Shown here: piece by piece, positions 2,967-31,968 of the stretch
Layout: every line of letters starts with the position of its first letter
Numbering within the stretch: position 1 is the stretch's first letter
From: Escherichia coli
GTDB lineage: Bacteria; Pseudomonadota; Gammaproteobacteria; Enterobacterales; Enterobacteriaceae
Strand: one strand, 5' to 3'
NCBI RefSeq assembly: GCF_022846255.1
Contig: NZ_AP025682.1
Length of the DNA stretch: 64,000 nucleotides
Translations under genes and position numbers: made by a program
Notes under the pieces: generated by a model
What the model was told of the DNA's origin: nothing
The model's input: only the letters and a program-made list of their open reading frames with translations
The model's database searches: none

Positions 2967-3058
2967 ACTACCCTCCGCTAAAGGCGGTGCTAAACGTTAC
3001 CCGCTTAGCACCGTAATTTTCAGGCGCGAGGGGGCGCGCCAGCATTACTGTTGAAAAC

Positions 3059-3367
3059 TTACGCTGCGGGTTGTGCAGCAGGTTTTGCCGGTTGCTGATG
3101 GCTGTGTTTCTTGGCGTGTTTCTTCGCTGCCTGCGCTTTTTGTTCAGGAGCTTTCTGTTCAGCTTTCGCATTTTTATGATGCTTTTTAGCCGCCTGCGCT
3201 TTCTGGGCAGGTGCTGCTTTATGCTGTTTTTTATGATGTGTAGTTTTCGCCGGCGCTGCTTTGGTGGTCGTCGCAGTCGGAGCAGGTGTGGTCACAGTTT
3301 CTGCAGCAAAGGCGGCAGAAGACAGACCCATAGCAGCGGCAACAACCAGAGCTAATACTTTTTTCAT
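3059..3367 (-). CDS. asr: acid shock protein Asr
   Basis: 102 aa from [17 protein letters not shown] signal peptide; Lys/Ala/His-rich low-complexity periplasmic protein; track ORF starts 9 codons upstream. Confidence 0.9.
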
Positions 3368-26897: not shown

Positions 26898-28943
26898 ATG
26901 ACAACAATGAATCCTTTCCTTGTGCAAAGCACACTGCCGTATCTGGCTCCCCATTTTGATCAAATTGCCAACCATCACTATCGCCCGGCATTCGATGAGG
27001 GAATACAGCAAAAGCGGGCAGAAATTGCTGCCATCGCGCTTAACCCGCAAACACCTGATTTTAAAAATACTATTCTGGCACTGGAACAAAGCGGAGAATT
27101 ACTTACCCGCGTTACCAGCGTCTTTTTTGCGATGACTGCGGCGCATACCAATGATGAATTACAGCGTCTTGATGAACAGTTTTCCGCTGAACTGGCGGAA
27201 CTTGCGAATGATATCTATCTGAACGGGGAATTATTCGCGCGGGTAGATGCTGTCTGGCAACGCCGTGAATCCCTGGGGCTTGATAGTGAATCCATCCGCC
27301 TGGTGGAGGTGATTCATCAACGTTTTGTCCTTGCCGGAGCCAAACTTGAGCAAGCTGATAAAGCAAAATTAAAAGTACTGAATACAGAAGCTGCGACCCT
27401 GACCAGCCAGTTTAACCAGCGGTTACTGGCAGCAAATAAATCCGGCGGTCTGGTTGTGAACGATATCGCGCAGCTGGCAGGAATGAGTGAACAAGAGATT
27501 GCGCTGGCGGCAGAGGCGGCTCGCGAGAAAGGTCTGGATAACAACTGGCTGATTCCGCTGCTGAATACCACCCAGCAACCAGCGCTTGCTGAACTGCGCG
27601 ATCGCGCGACGCGTGAAAAACTGTTTACTGCGGGCTGGACGCGAGCGGAAAAAAATGATGCCAATGATACCCGCGCTATCATTCAACGTCTGGTGGAGAT
27701 CCGCGCGCAGCAGGCGAAACTGCTTGGTTTTCCTCATTATGCCGCATGGAAAATCGCCGATCAGATGGCAAAAACGCCAGAAGCAGCGCTCAACTTTATG
27801 CGGGAAATTGTTCCAGCGGCGCGTCAACGTGCGAGCGATGAATTAACCTCCATACAGGCGGTTATCGATAAGCAGCAGGGCGGGTTTAGCGCGCAGCCGT
27901 GGGACTGGGCATTTTATGCCGAGCAGGTAAGACGTGAGAAATTCGATCTCGATGAAGCGCAGCTCAAGCCTTATTTCGAATTAAACACGGTGTTGAATGA
28001 AGGCGTATTCTGGACTGCGAATCAGCTCTTCGGTATTAAGTTTGTCGAACGTTTTGATATTCCTGTCTACCATCCTGACGTTCGTGTGTGGGAAATTTTT
28101 GATCATAATGGCGTGGGGCTGGCGTTATTTTACGGTGATTTCTTCGCCCGTGATTCAAAAAGCGGCGGCGCATGGATGGGCAATTTTGTTGAGCAATCAA
28201 CGCTGAATGAAACGCACCCGGTAATTTATAACGTCTGCAATTATCAGAAACCCGCTGCCGGTGAGCCTGCGTTGTTACTCTGGGATGATGTAATAACCTT
28301 ATTCCATGAATTTGGTCATACGCTGCACGGCCTTTTTGCCCGCCAGCGTTATGCCACGCTTTCCGGCACCAACACGCCGCGTGATTTTGTCGAATTTCCG
28401 TCGCAAATCAACGAACACTGGGCAACACATCCGCAGGTATTCGCTCGCTACGCCCGGCATTATCAGAGCGGGGCCGCAATGCCTGACGAACTTCAACAGA
28501 AAATGCGTAATGCCAGCCTGTTCAATAAAGGGTATGAGATGAGCGAACTGCTTAGCGCCGCACTTCTCGATATGCGCTGGCATTGTCTGGAAGAAAACGA
28601 AGCAATGCAGGACGTCGATGATTTCGAATTGCGGGCGCTGGTGGCGGAAAATATGGATCTTCCTGCTATACCGCCACGCTATCGCAGCAGTTATTTCGCC
28701 CATATTTTTGGTGGCGGATATGCCGCAGGTTATTACGCTTATCTGTGGACGCAAATGTTGGCCGATGATGGTTACCAGTGGTTTGTTGAGCAGGGCGGAT
28801 TAACGCGTGAAAATGGGCGGCGTTTTCGCGAGGCGATTCTTTCCAGAGGTAACAGCGAAGATCTGGAACGCCTGTATCGACAATGGCGCGGTAAGGCACC
28901 TCAGATTATGCCGATGCTGCAACATCGTGGCTTGAACGTATAA
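26898..28943 (+). CDS. dcp: dipeptidyl carboxypeptidase II Dcp (M3 family)
   Basis: 681 aa from [10 protein letters not shown] with AGGAGAAG Shine-Dalgarno; HEFGH zinc motif. Confidence 0.92.
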
Positions 28944-29449
28944 ACACCACCAATGGCTGGCCTGGATTTATCGCCAGACCAGCTTCGTTATAGCAGTAAT
29001 TGCAGCAACTGGGCGAGGGCAAACTTCACCGCTAATGCGAATGCCGTTTCGCAGTCGCCAGCAAAATTACTTTTTTTGTATACTCTTCCGTTATAATAAT
29101 TTTCAAATTCAGCCGGACCAGATGATCAACATTAGCGGCAGTCTGGATAAGAAAAGCGCGCCGGCCGTCGTTCGGGTCACTCAGTTGCAGAAATAAAAAT
29201 AAATTAGCCTGATGGCCTGAACTACTGGGCCATTAGGGTATTGGGTTATGCTATTTGTCATCCTTTTAATTGCGATAATGCAGAGTTAATTTATAGAATT
29301 AAACACTTTTTTATCTGCTGATTTTGTTTTAAATCACAATGTTATCTCAGAGATGCTCATAACTCCGGATTTCTATGAAAATATTGACGTAATTTTGCTT
29401 TTCTCTCGTTAGAATAGCGCGCACAAGGAACTGTGAAAAAGGAGTGGCA

Positions 29450-30340
29450 ATGATCAAGAAGACAACGGAAATTGATGCCATCTTGTTAAATCTCAATAAG
29501 GCTATCGATGCCCACTACCAGTGGCTGGTAAGTATGTTTCACAGCGTGGTCGCGAGAGATGCCAGTAAGCCAGAAATAACGGATAACCATTCTTATGGGC
29601 TGTGCCAGTTTGGTCGGTGGATTGATCATCTGGGGCCACTCGATAACGATGAATTACCTTACGTTCGGCTAATGGATTCTGCCCATCAACATATGCATAA
29701 CTGTGGTCGGGAATTAATGCTGGCTATTGTTGAAAATCACTGGCAGGACGCGCATTTCGACGCTTTTCAGGAAGGGTTGCTTTCTTTTACTGCGGCATTA
29801 ACCGATTACAAAATTTATTTGCTGACGATCCGTAGCAGTATGGATGTTCTGACGGGATTGCCGGGTCGTCGGGTTCTTGATGAATCCTTCGATCATCAGT
29901 TACGCAATGCTGAACCTCTGAATCTTTATTTAATGTTGTTGGATATAGACCGATTTAAATTGGTTAATGATACCTACGGGCATTTAATCGGCGATGTAGT
30001 ATTACGCACCCTCGCAACTTACTTAGCCAGTTGGACGCGCGATTACGAAACGGTTTATCGCTACGGGGGCGAAGAATTTATCATTATTGTCAAAGCGACT
30101 AATGATGAAGAAGCATGTCGTGCAGGTGTCAGAATTTGCCAGTTAGTCGATAACCATGCCATCACACATTCTGAAGGGCATATCAACATTACCGTGACTG
30201 CTGGTGTGAGTCGTGCATTTCCTGAAGAGCCTCTGGATGTGGTCATTGGAAGAGCGGACAGGGCAATGTATGAGGGTAAGCAAACCGGAAGGAATCGCTG
30301 CATGTTTATTGACGAACAAAATGTGATTAACCGAGTTTAA
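29450..30340 (+). CDS. dgcZ: zinc-sensing diguanylate cyclase DgcZ (YdeH)
   Basis: 296 aa; N-terminal CZB domain, C-terminal GGDEF with GGEEF motif. Confidence 0.9.
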   Translation: MIKKTTEIDAILLNLNKAIDAHYQWLVSMFHSVVARDASKPEITDNHSYGLCQFGRWIDHLGPLDNDELPYVRLMDSAHQHMHNCGRELMLAIVENHWQDAHFDAFQEGLLSFTAALTDYKIYLLTIRSSMDVLTGLPGRRVLDESFDHQLRNAEPLNLYLMLLDIDRFKLVNDTYGHLIGDVVLRTLATYLASWTRDYETVYRYGGEEFIIIVKATNDEEACRAGVRICQLVDNHAITHSEGHINITVTAGVSRAFPEEPLDVVIGRADRAMYEGKQTGRNRCMFIDEQNVINRV

Positions 30341-30350
30341 GCTCCGTTTA
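30334..30350 (+). promoter_or_regulatory. PhoP-box-like direct repeat upstream of candidate MgrR
   Basis: aGTTTA-agctc-cGTTTA, GTTTA cores match the (T/G)GTTTA-N5-(T/G)GTTTA pattern; overlaps the dgcZ stop codon. Confidence 0.4.
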
Positions 30351-30374
30351 ACATTCATTGAGAAAACTGATGCT

Positions 30375-30483
30375 ACTGTGTCAACGATCCGTTATCAGTG
30401 CAGGAAAATGCCTGTTAGCGTAAAAGCAAAACACAAATCTATCCATGCAAGCATTCACCGCCGGTTTACTGGCGGTTTTTTTT
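30375..30483 (+). ncRNA. mgrR: candidate MgrR small RNA (5' end approximate)
   Basis: Roughly 100-nt + strand interval between a PhoP-box-like repeat and a strong intrinsic terminator; K-12 encodes the PhoP-dependent sRNA MgrR between dgcZ and mgtS (memory); 5' end not determined. Confidence 0.45.
30458..30483 (+). terminator. intrinsic terminator, 3' end of candidate MgrR
   Basis: 7-bp GC-rich stem CCGCCGG/CTGGCGG with 4-nt loop followed by T8. Confidence 0.7.
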
Positions 30484-30490
30484 CGCCGTC

Positions 30491-30531
30491 ATAAAAATCA
30501 GGCCCCTTGTACACAACTGTAACAAGGGGCC
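30491..30531 (-). terminator. intrinsic terminator after mgtS
   Basis: 10-bp perfect stem GGCCCCTTGT/ACAAGGGGCC; on minus strand followed by TGATTTTTAT. Confidence 0.6.
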
Positions 30532-30558
30532 GGTTAGGTGAGGGATTATCTCCGTTCA

Positions 30559-30654
30559 TTAGTCATCCCATTTGTGGCTGAAATACGCGGCCAGAAACCC
30601 AGAAAATAAAATTATTCCCAGTACGGCCATAAAAACATTCATATTACCCAGCAT
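30559..30654 (-). CDS. mgtS: small membrane protein MgtS (YneM), 31 aa
   Basis: Hand translation of minus strand: MLGNMNVFMAVLGIILFSGFLAAYFSHKWDD with GGAGG 6 nt upstream of ATG; recognised as MgtS; below ORF-track cutoff. Confidence 0.8.
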   Translation of the reverse strand: MLGNMNVFMAVLGIILFSGFLAAYFSHKWDD

Positions 30655-30780
30655 TATTTGCCTCCGTTTATGGTGTGGTGTGTTTCCTCGCTTACCTTAA
30701 TTTTCATCTCAATGAGAAAGATATTAGCAGAGGTAACCTAAACGAAGGCTGAATTAAATTCTTATTGTGTTCGACTTAAA

Positions 30781-31968
30781 TCAACAAAGCGCGGGCTGCC
30801 CCCACGGTCTTGCACGAATTCCTTTTAACATCAGCACCCACGCAACAACGATCACCAACGCTAAGATGATAAACAGCGAGAAAGGCGGCAGACTGGTAAG
30901 TACTATGCCACTCACTAATGGGTTAATCGCAGCACCAAGCCAGCCTAAAGACTGGGCGGAAAAATAGCTGGCTTTCATTCCTGGCGGCGCAATATGGTCA
31001 ATCAACATATACTCGCCCGGCGCATAAATGATTTCACCGACAGTAAATACCGCAGCTGACATACCCCACAATAGCAGGCTGTTGCCGGAAAAAATAAAAC
31101 CGACCAGCCCGATGACGAAACAGAGGGTGCCTGCTGTCATCAGCGCGCGGATGTTAGCCGGGTTAAGGCGGCGGCCCACGGAATATTGCAACGTAACCAC
31201 CATGGCAGCATTCACCGGAAGAACAACCGCGACCACCTTTTCGGCAAAATCACCATCAGCAATCACCATCACATATTGTGAAATGCATGAAGCAAATGCG
31301 CCGCTAACAAAAGAAGCCAGAAAGCCAGAGCAGGTAAACCACAACAGTGCTTTATCTTGTAATAAAACTTTCGGCGACCAGACACTGCCTGTTTCCGTGG
31401 CGATGATTTTCTCGCTGCGCTTTACCCAAATTTGAATGAAAAGCATGGGGAACGCGGAACAGATAGCTGCCAGCCAGAAGGGCAGATTGATGCTCTGCAT
31501 CACCAACAGCGTGCCGAGTGGCGGACCGATGGTCCAGCCAATGTTGAGCATGGTGTAGTTGATTGAGAAAATCTTCGTTTTGCTGGTGGACGAAAGATTG
31601 TCGGCAAACCAGGCTTTCAGCACGGTAGCAAAAACGGAGTAGGCGCAGTTAATAAGGGCAAAAAAGAGCACCACCAGCGTCACGTTATTCACTAAAGGAA
31701 TGGCAATAAAACCGCTAGCGAAGGCGGTAATTGCCAGTAACATATAGCGTTTCTTGTCGAACTTATCCGCCAGGATACCAAAACCGAGGCTAAAAACGAC
31801 GCCAATAGTGAGCGCAATTGTCATCGCATAACCGATTAGATCGACACTCAGGCTGTACTGGCGACTCAAGTAAATGGTCATAAACGGCAGCGTAGCGCCG
31901 CGTCCGATGGTTAATAACAACGACGAGGCAAGAAGGGCGCTGGTAGAGCGTCGTAAGGATAAGTTCAT
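30781..31968 (-). CDS. ydeE: MFS transporter YdeE
   Basis: 395 aa multi-TM ORF. Confidence 0.9.
   Translation of the reverse strand: MNLSLRRSTSALLASSLLLTIGRGATLPFMTIYLSRQYSLSVDLIGYAMTIALTIGVVFSLGFGILADKFDKKRYMLLAITAFASGFIAIPLVNNVTLVVLFFALINCAYSVFATVLKAWFADNLSSTSKTKIFSINYTMLNIGWTIGPPLGTLLVMQSINLPFWLAAICSAFPMLFIQIWVKRSEKIIATETGSVWSPKVLLQDKALLWFTCSGFLASFVSGAFASCISQYVMVIADGDFAEKVVAVVLPVNAAMVVTLQYSVGRRLNPANIRALMTAGTLCFVIGLVGFIFSGNSLLLWGMSAAVFTVGEIIYAPGEYMLIDHIAPPGMKASYFSAQSLGWLGAAINPLVSGIVLTSLPPFSLFIILALVIVVAWVLMLKGIRARPWGQPALC

Follow-up and report, generated by a model that had tools for sequence, protein, structure and literature searches.

The mgrR and mgtS-mgtT low-magnesium locus between dgcZ and ydeE of Escherichia coli, with candidate PhoP boxes defined by comparison across species

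The locus between dgcZ and ydeE of Escherichia coli belongs to textbook PhoQ/PhoP biology, which takes in Mg2+ homeostasis, LPS modification and antimicrobial-peptide sensitivity. In promoters activated by PhoP, a box with the consensus (T/G)GTTTA-N5-(T/G)GTTTA reportedly replaces the -35 hexamer and is said to lie about 12 bp from the -10 element. One RNA governed by this system, MgrR, depends on PhoP/PhoQ and acts via Hfq to repress eptB and ygdQ (PMC6239178), and pitA has been added as a further MgrR target by RIL-seq in Salmonella. Probing of the 98-nt MgrR revealed a central A-rich (ARN)5 motif, a pairing region spanning U55-A68, and a U8 stretch at the 3′ end (PMC6239178).

The protein-coding side of the locus has been studied as well. 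In the literature, MgtS is described as binding both MgtA and PitA and as raising intracellular Mg2+; it is said to stabilise MgtA and reportedly inhibits PitA. Transcription of mgtS-mgtT has been reported to be PhoQP-dependent (PMC11429745). Ribosome profiling revealed the small ORF mgtT, which epitope tagging then confirmed (Weaver et al., 10.1101/511675), and its translation has also been reported by PIRT-seq (PMC12350097). It is co-transcribed with mgtS under PhoQP control, and neither its deletion nor its overexpression produced a phenotype (PMC11429745). The PIRT-seq study additionally detected, weakly and by tag, a short upstream ORF termed CDS58 (PMC12350097).

In the E. coli DNA analysed here, a stretch of 64,000 nucleotides referred to as the window, the stop codons of dgcZ (30338-30340) and ydeE (from 30781, 30781-30783) leave a gap of exactly the 440 bp given in the initial annotation. 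This gap is almost certainly the mgrR / mgtS-mgtT low-magnesium locus already known from E. coli. Many complete E. coli chromosomes match the interval 30300-30800 at 100% identity, the locus finds a match in 5416 of 5426 complete E. coli genomes, and its surroundings are collinear with the E. coli type strain ATCC 11775 at about 99.2% identity. Alignment to K-12 over 402 positions (30300-30701) contains no gaps and two substitutions, one at 30389 (nt 4 of mgrR) and one at 30598 (synonymous, in mgtS). The curated gene order in K-12 is ydeE, mgtS (b4599), mgtT (b4775), mgrR (b4698, an ncRNA on the opposite strand) and dgcZ, and this annotation transfers without gaps to the window, where it places mgrR at 30386-30483 on the + strand, and mgtT and mgtS at 30455-30559 and 30559-30654, respectively, on the - strand.

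An Rfam scan of the whole window returned a single match at the gathering threshold, namely a full-length match to the model RF01407 (STnc560) with 281.9 bits against a gathering score of 55 (E = 1.8e-64). We take STnc560 to be the Salmonella name for MgrR. The earlier proposal of MgrR, made from the letters of the sequence, is therefore borne out by a covariance-model match far above the gathering score as well as by the gap-free alignment of K-12 b4698, in which 97 of 98 nucleotides are identical. The reading frame of mgtS is unbroken, and nothing found contradicts the identification of either mgrR or mgtS.

The identification rests on database identity and on conservation across species, because motif counts within the window are not above chance. 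The exact pattern GTTTA-N6-GTTTA occurs once in 64 kb; set against an expectation of 0.15 and its occurrence in 14 of 100 shuffled sequences, this is not significant. The relaxed PhoP consensus is not enriched in the window either (15 found vs 16.9 expected). With neither pattern enriched over shuffles, window motif statistics were rejected as support for a PhoP box. ORFs of at least 20 codons are abundant, numbering 57 in 3.5 kb.

The small inner-membrane protein MgtS (YneM) is encoded on the - strand at 30559-30654. The 31 codons translate as MLGNMNVFMAVLGIILFSGFLAAYFSHKWDD in an intact frame, and a Shine-Dalgarno GGAGG lies at 30661-30665 on the same strand, 6 nt before the ATG. The product scores 80.6 bits against the NCBIfam equivalog NF033842 (cutoff 35), with residues 1-31 aligned to profile positions 1-31, and RefSeq records with identical DNA annotate this ORF as mgtS. 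The exact MgtS peptide and the strong GGAGG recognised in the initial annotation are both present. K-12 MgtS (b4599) has the same 31-aa sequence, Shine-Dalgarno, promoter and position, and the synonymous change at 30598 is the one difference. Across 36 species, the mean column entropy of mgtS by codon position is 0.23/0.11/0.88; this is a clear protein-coding signature, and points to purifying selection on mgtS.

The two units of the locus converge, each on its own predicted intrinsic terminator. On the + strand, a strong terminator was recognised both by terminator scan and by folding, with a stem at 30457-30476 (nt 72-91 of mgrR) and a T8 run, the U8 tail of the RNA, at 30476-30483, as had been described from the sequence. 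The pairs of this stem are kept across mgrR homologues; at one position the pair is A-U in some and G-C in others. The mgtS terminator on the - strand (30491-30531) has its stem at 30501-30531, where GGCCCCTTG/CAAGGGGCC form the two arms, 30531-30523 pairing with 30509-30501, followed by TGATTTTTAT. The consensus terminator scan missed it because its loop measures 11 nt. All nine stem pairs are kept in 36 of 36 species, and for six of the nine, at least one species carries changes in both partners. Both terminators thus combine conservation with compensatory changes. The back-to-back arrangement of the convergent mgrR and mgtS units, which had been deduced beforehand, is present; the spacing of 8 nt proposed for it is in fact 9 nt (30484-30492, from T8 to A5), a trivial difference.

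Two further small ORFs, mgtT and CDS58, did not figure in the initial account of the mgtS operon. The 34-aa ORF mgtT (MNGDNPSPNRPLVTVVYKGPDFYDGEKKPPVNRR; 30455-30559 on the - strand), which corresponds to K-12 b4775 and is annotated in RefSeq, begins within the mgtS stop codon, the two sharing 1 nt in the sequence TAATG. Its frame continues across the mgtS terminator as far as 30455, where it ends within the MgrR terminator. Since mgtT spans the mgtS terminator, the latter lies within an annotated coding sequence, and since mgtT ends only at 30455, the final 29 nt of MgrR (30455-30483) would be covered in antisense by a full-length mgtT message. Upstream of mgtS, the 17-codon CDS58 (MKIKVSEETHHTINGGK; 30654-30707 on the - strand) is identical to the sequence in the supplement of the PIRT-seq study (PMC12350097), and its stop overlaps the mgtS ATG by 1 nt, again as TAATG. 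Compared with MgtT of K-12 (b4775) and the published CDS58 (PMC12350097), the peptides and the TAATG overlaps are the same, and no difference is seen within E. coli.

Outside Escherichia, neither mgtT nor CDS58 appears from these comparisons to be conserved as a protein. The CDS58 start codon is already absent in E. albertii and E. whittamii. For mgtT, we lean towards the view that it is not a selected protein at all, and that it is translated in E. coli only through reinitiation at TAATG on read-through transcripts. Depending on the species, the ORF is as short as 14 codons or as long as more than 50, and its entropy by codon position is 0.63/0.63/0.87 over the first 14 codons and 1.13/1.05/1.08 thereafter, so that the three-base periodicity seen in mgtS is missing. 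The stretch of mgtT that is conserved coincides with the terminator stem, NCBIfam holds no model for MgtT, and the lack of a phenotype upon deletion or overexpression (PMC11429745) points the same way. However, MgtT has been detected by epitope tag and in two independent translation screens, and its ATG and opening codons, MN(G/D)D, are widely retained, both of which would fit a selected product.

The leader of the mgtS transcript contains a further conserved element, AAGGTAAGnGAGG (also written AAGGUAAGnGAGG), at 30686-30698 on the - strand. In the alignment of 35 species, most columns of this block are conserved at 83-100%, vs 40-77% for the flanking leader columns. The block falls inside CDS58 and was considered as coding sequence of that ORF, a candidate that was rejected in view of its conservation in genera that have no CDS58 start codon.

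The promoters of the two units were defined by comparison. Homologues of mgrR were collected from a one-genome-per-species collection by an exact 19-mer over the seed (30435-30453), which was found in 84 stretches (L003-L086), almost all of them from Enterobacteriaceae and covering about 20 genera. Five matches from beyond the family (Atopobium, two Moraxella, a Mycoplasmataceae MAG and a Gammaproteobacteria MAG) were left out, as was a contig resembling E. coli within a Caldithrix MAG. The mgrR promoter alignment comprises 75 distinct upstream sequences, again almost all from Enterobacteriaceae, and its columns are not biased by selection, since the sequences were chosen by the seed 19-mer only. 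For mgtS, the alignment covers the 35 species in which mgtS adjoins mgrR.

Conservation among the 75 sequences outlines a candidate PhoP box, CGTTTA-ACATT-CATTGA, at 30345-30361 on the + strand, and an extended -10 element, TGcTACTGT, at 30371-30379. Within the box, GTTTA at 30346-30350 is 97-100% conserved, TT at 30354-30355 88-89%, TT at 30358-30359 99-100%, and the final A at 30361 83%. Within the -10 element, the TG at 30371-30372 is conserved at 93% and 100%, and the TA at 30374-30375 and the T at 30379 are invariant (100%). Box and extended -10 are 12 nt apart, the box ends at -25, and the annotated 5′ end of mgrR (30386) lies 7 nt 3′ of the -10. There is no -35 hexamer, and a scan with the sigma-70 consensus found nothing, which fits activator-dependent promoters given that the -35 hexamer is absent. 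Comparative conservation and the annotated 5′ end together place the candidate mgrR PhoP box at 30345-30361; two papers in which mgrR and a PhoP box are both named do not give coordinates for it.

The promoter of mgtS follows a similar plan on the - strand. Its candidate PhoP box, AATTCA-GCCTT-CGTTTA, occupies 30755-30739 and is delineated by conservation across the 35 species (TT 30753-30752 100%, A 30750 97%, GTTTA 30743-30739 97-100%), and its extended -10, TGcTAATAT, occupies 30729-30721 (G30728 91%, T30726 94%, A30725 100%, T30721 100%). Box and -10 are once more 12 nt apart. From this spacing, with 25 nt counted from the end of the box, transcription would be predicted to start at about 30713-30714. 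The initial annotation had noted a CGTTTA half-site (30744-30739) 12 nt upstream of TAATAT (30726-30721), and the half-site and the distance are as it stated; what it treated as a half-site alone is the downstream half of a full box at 30755-30739.

Both candidate boxes therefore show the features reported for PhoP-activated promoters, that is, a repeat, a distance of about 12 bp to the -10, and no -35 hexamer. With promoters of the mgtA, phoP and mgrB type they share the direct repeat, the 11-bp register, and the end of the box at -25, and like them, mgrR and mgtS both lack a -35 hexamer. Near-invariant half-sites together with TGnTAnnnT at canonical spacing are found at mgrR (n = 75) and at mgtS (n = 35) alike. 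Unlike the PhoP consensus, each box combines one strong half-site with one degenerate half-site, and the strong one is upstream in the mgrR box but downstream in the mgtS box. The conserved TG of the extended -10 in both promoters is a further departure from the canon of PhoP-activated promoters.

A different box had been suggested for mgrR by the initial annotation, namely the repeat GTTTA-N6-GTTTA at the dgcZ stop codon. This repeat is present at 30335-30350 and overlaps the TAA, and its downstream GTTTA (30346-30350) is indeed the upstream half of the candidate box described above. Its upstream GTTTA (30335-30339) fares less well, as it is formed by the final dgcZ codon, GTT (Val), and the TAA stop codon, and its columns are conserved at 20-43%, compared with 97-100% for the downstream GTTTA (n = 75). 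It is replaced by GTTTT in two other lineages of Escherichia, L018 (whose dgcZ stop codon reads TAG) and E. albertii, with the box at 30345-30361 and the rest of the promoter unchanged. It is unlikely that this repeat is the functional mgrR box, or that three in-phase half-sites, AGTTTA, CGTTTA and CATTGA, act together in Escherichia. The hexamer AGTTTA (30334-30339) does agree with the half-site consensus at five of six positions and sits exactly 11 bp upstream of CGTTTA, and weak in-phase matches occur in Citrobacter and Salmonella (TAGTTA, GGTTAC). However, a box ending at 30350 would be 23 nt from the -10 instead of the canonical 12 nt, and nothing supports a contribution of a third in-phase half-site to the E. 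coli mgrR promoter. The box at 30345-30361 is thus retained as the candidate for mgrR.

The RNA expressed from this promoter is, according to the K-12 mapping of b4698 and the match to RF01407, the 98-nt sRNA MgrR (30386-30483 on the + strand). In the predicted fold of this interval, a 5′ hairpin (30390-30420, nt 5-35) is followed by an unpaired centre, and then by the terminator and the U-rich tail (z = -2.89), in line with what probing of the 98-nt RNA showed (PMC6239178). Features mapped from the same study place the A-rich ARN region at 30419-30439 and the seed (nt 55-68) at 30440-30453. In comparison with K-12 MgrR (b4698), the seed, ARN region, terminator, U8 tail, synteny and promoter are shared, and the sole difference is a C in place of T at nt 4 (30389). 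The C of the window is the majority base at this position across Enterobacteriaceae. A reading of the RNA as the unit of about 214 nt modelled by Rfam (30352-30565), instead of the 98-nt sRNA, can be set aside as highly improbable: although the model aligns end to end over that interval, its first 34 nt take in the conserved PhoP half-site and -10 element, the strong terminator with U8 ends at 30483, the curated K-12 gene and the RNA probed in vitro are both 98 nt long, and in Enterobacter and Leclercia, which have no adjacent mgtS, the match to RF01407 barely exceeds the gathering score, as the model's 3′ portion represents sequence from the mgtS side.

The architecture of the 98-nt MgrR extends beyond E. 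coli. Matches to RF01407 are also found at the loci of Salmonella, Citrobacter, Kosakonia, Yokenella, Siccibacter, Leclercia and Enterobacter. When 76 mgrR homologues were aligned with MAFFT and analysed with RNAalifold, the terminator alone was recovered. The 5′ hairpin was misaligned in that analysis, and each sequence was therefore folded separately; by this approach the 5′ hairpin is predicted in 76 of 76 distinct homologues, despite very different stem sequences. Escherichia, Citrobacter, Salmonella, Kosakonia, Phytobacter, Pluralibacter and Yokenella carry the convergent pair of mgrR and mgtS. Within 3 kb of mgrR there is no mgtS in the four genera Enterobacter, Kluyvera, Lelliottia and Leclercia, so that the pairing is to be regarded as common but not obligatory.

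Whether the convergence does more than bring two genes together can be considered from the overlap of their transcripts. A transcript long enough to include mgtT reads through and is antisense to the terminator and U-tail of MgrR, so that the two RNAs could influence each other. By eye, no complementarity was seen between MgrR and the mgtS mRNA beyond this antisense overlap on read-through transcripts. That the convergent layout is itself functional, through collision of transcription or through duplex formation and RNase III cleavage, is a doubtful proposition, and it is a separate and similarly tentative one that the leader block at 30686-30698 serves as a site of post-transcriptional control of mgtS. 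Neither antisense coupling nor a control role for the leader block was found in the literature searched.

The result mainly validates what had been recognised from the raw sequence, namely a genuine sRNA gene and a gene of 31 codons, the former of which is omitted from standard ORF tracks and from PGAP RefSeq records. Small additions to the published picture are that both candidate PhoP boxes, with their extended -10 elements, are defined by comparison, and that mgtT and CDS58 are probably not conserved as proteins beyond Escherichia. Taken together with the literature, the arrangement suggests that when Mg2+ is low, PhoQ/PhoP would become active and switch on both convergent units. On the + strand, the PhoP box (30345-30361) and the extended -10, with no -35 hexamer, would drive mgrR (30386-30483), whose single-stranded seed (nt 55-68) would pair with mRNAs such as those of eptB, ygdQ and pitA and repress them, as reported. 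On the - strand, the same architecture (box 30755-30739, -10 30729-30721) would drive a CDS58-mgtS-mgtT operon, from which MgtS would stabilise the Mg2+ importer MgtA and, as reported in the literature, inhibit the PitA phosphate/cation symporter, so that intracellular Mg2+ would rise. Each unit would end at its own intrinsic terminator, the two being 9 nt apart. Convergent promoters that share one design of box and extended -10, each paired with a conserved terminator, would thus provide a sequence basis for the co-regulation of mgrR and mgtS.

Upstream of mgtS, a 17-codon ORF, MKIKVSEETHHTINGGK (30654-30707, minus strand), ends in a stop codon that overlaps the mgtS ATG (TAATG); its sequence exactly matches CDS58, already described in PMC12350097. 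In the species comparison, E. albertii and E. whittamii lack the start codon of this ORF. Downstream, mgtT (30455-30559, minus strand) encodes 34 aa in a frame that crosses the mgtS terminator hairpin and stops within the MgrR terminator, so that it overlaps the 3′ end of mgrR in antisense by 29 nt. Depending on the species, the mgtT ORF can be as short as 14 codons or exceed 50, and the comparison detected no codon-position signature in it.

Within the mgtS 5′ leader lies a conserved block, AAGGTAAGnGAGG (30686-30698, minus strand), in which most columns are 83-100% conserved among 35 species, with the neighboring leader much less so. This block is also kept in genera that have no upstream ORF CDS58. 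Directly 5′ of the mgtS promoter, and on the same strand, the final codons of ydeE contain a hairpin resembling a terminator (CGTGGGGGCAGCCCGCG, then CTTTGTTGAT; 30790-30806, minus strand), which may limit read-through from ydeE into mgtS.

The gap between dcp and dgcZ (28943-29449) is about 0.5 kb in the window, as opposed to about 1.5 kb in K-12, and lacks the K-12 genes ydeI and ydeJ. In the type strain, a close relative, the annotation of this interval lists nothing beyond short pseudogene remnants.

The Rfam match to mgrR, RF01407, extends over 30352-30565 (plus strand); besides the 98-nt mgrR RNA itself, the model spans its promoter together with the mgtS terminator and the 3′-terminal part of mgtS. 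Because it includes sequence from the mgtS side, its score barely exceeds the gathering score in genera that have no adjacent mgtS. RefSeq records produced by PGAP annotate mgtS and mgtT, with mgrR absent.

Among the loci matched by the mgrR seed, a contig from a metagenome-assembled genome labeled Caldithrix sp. (L008) carries an mgtS and mgrR region identical to that of E. coli, and is most likely a contaminant or misbinned. Enterobacteriaceae bacterium RIT691 (L014) carries mgrR twice, at an interval of about 1.6 kb (1408-1516 and 3001-3110 of that locus, minus strand), each copy scoring above the Rfam gathering score, and mgtS adjoins only one of them. In Enterobacter, Kluyvera, Lelliottia, and Leclercia (L005, L010, L011, L066, and L069, among other loci compared), an mgrR gene is preceded by the same PhoP box and -10 element, and no mgtS-like ORF was found within 3 kb of it. 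The lack of a nearby mgtS in these four genera indicates that the convergent pairing of mgrR with mgtS is limited to certain lineages.
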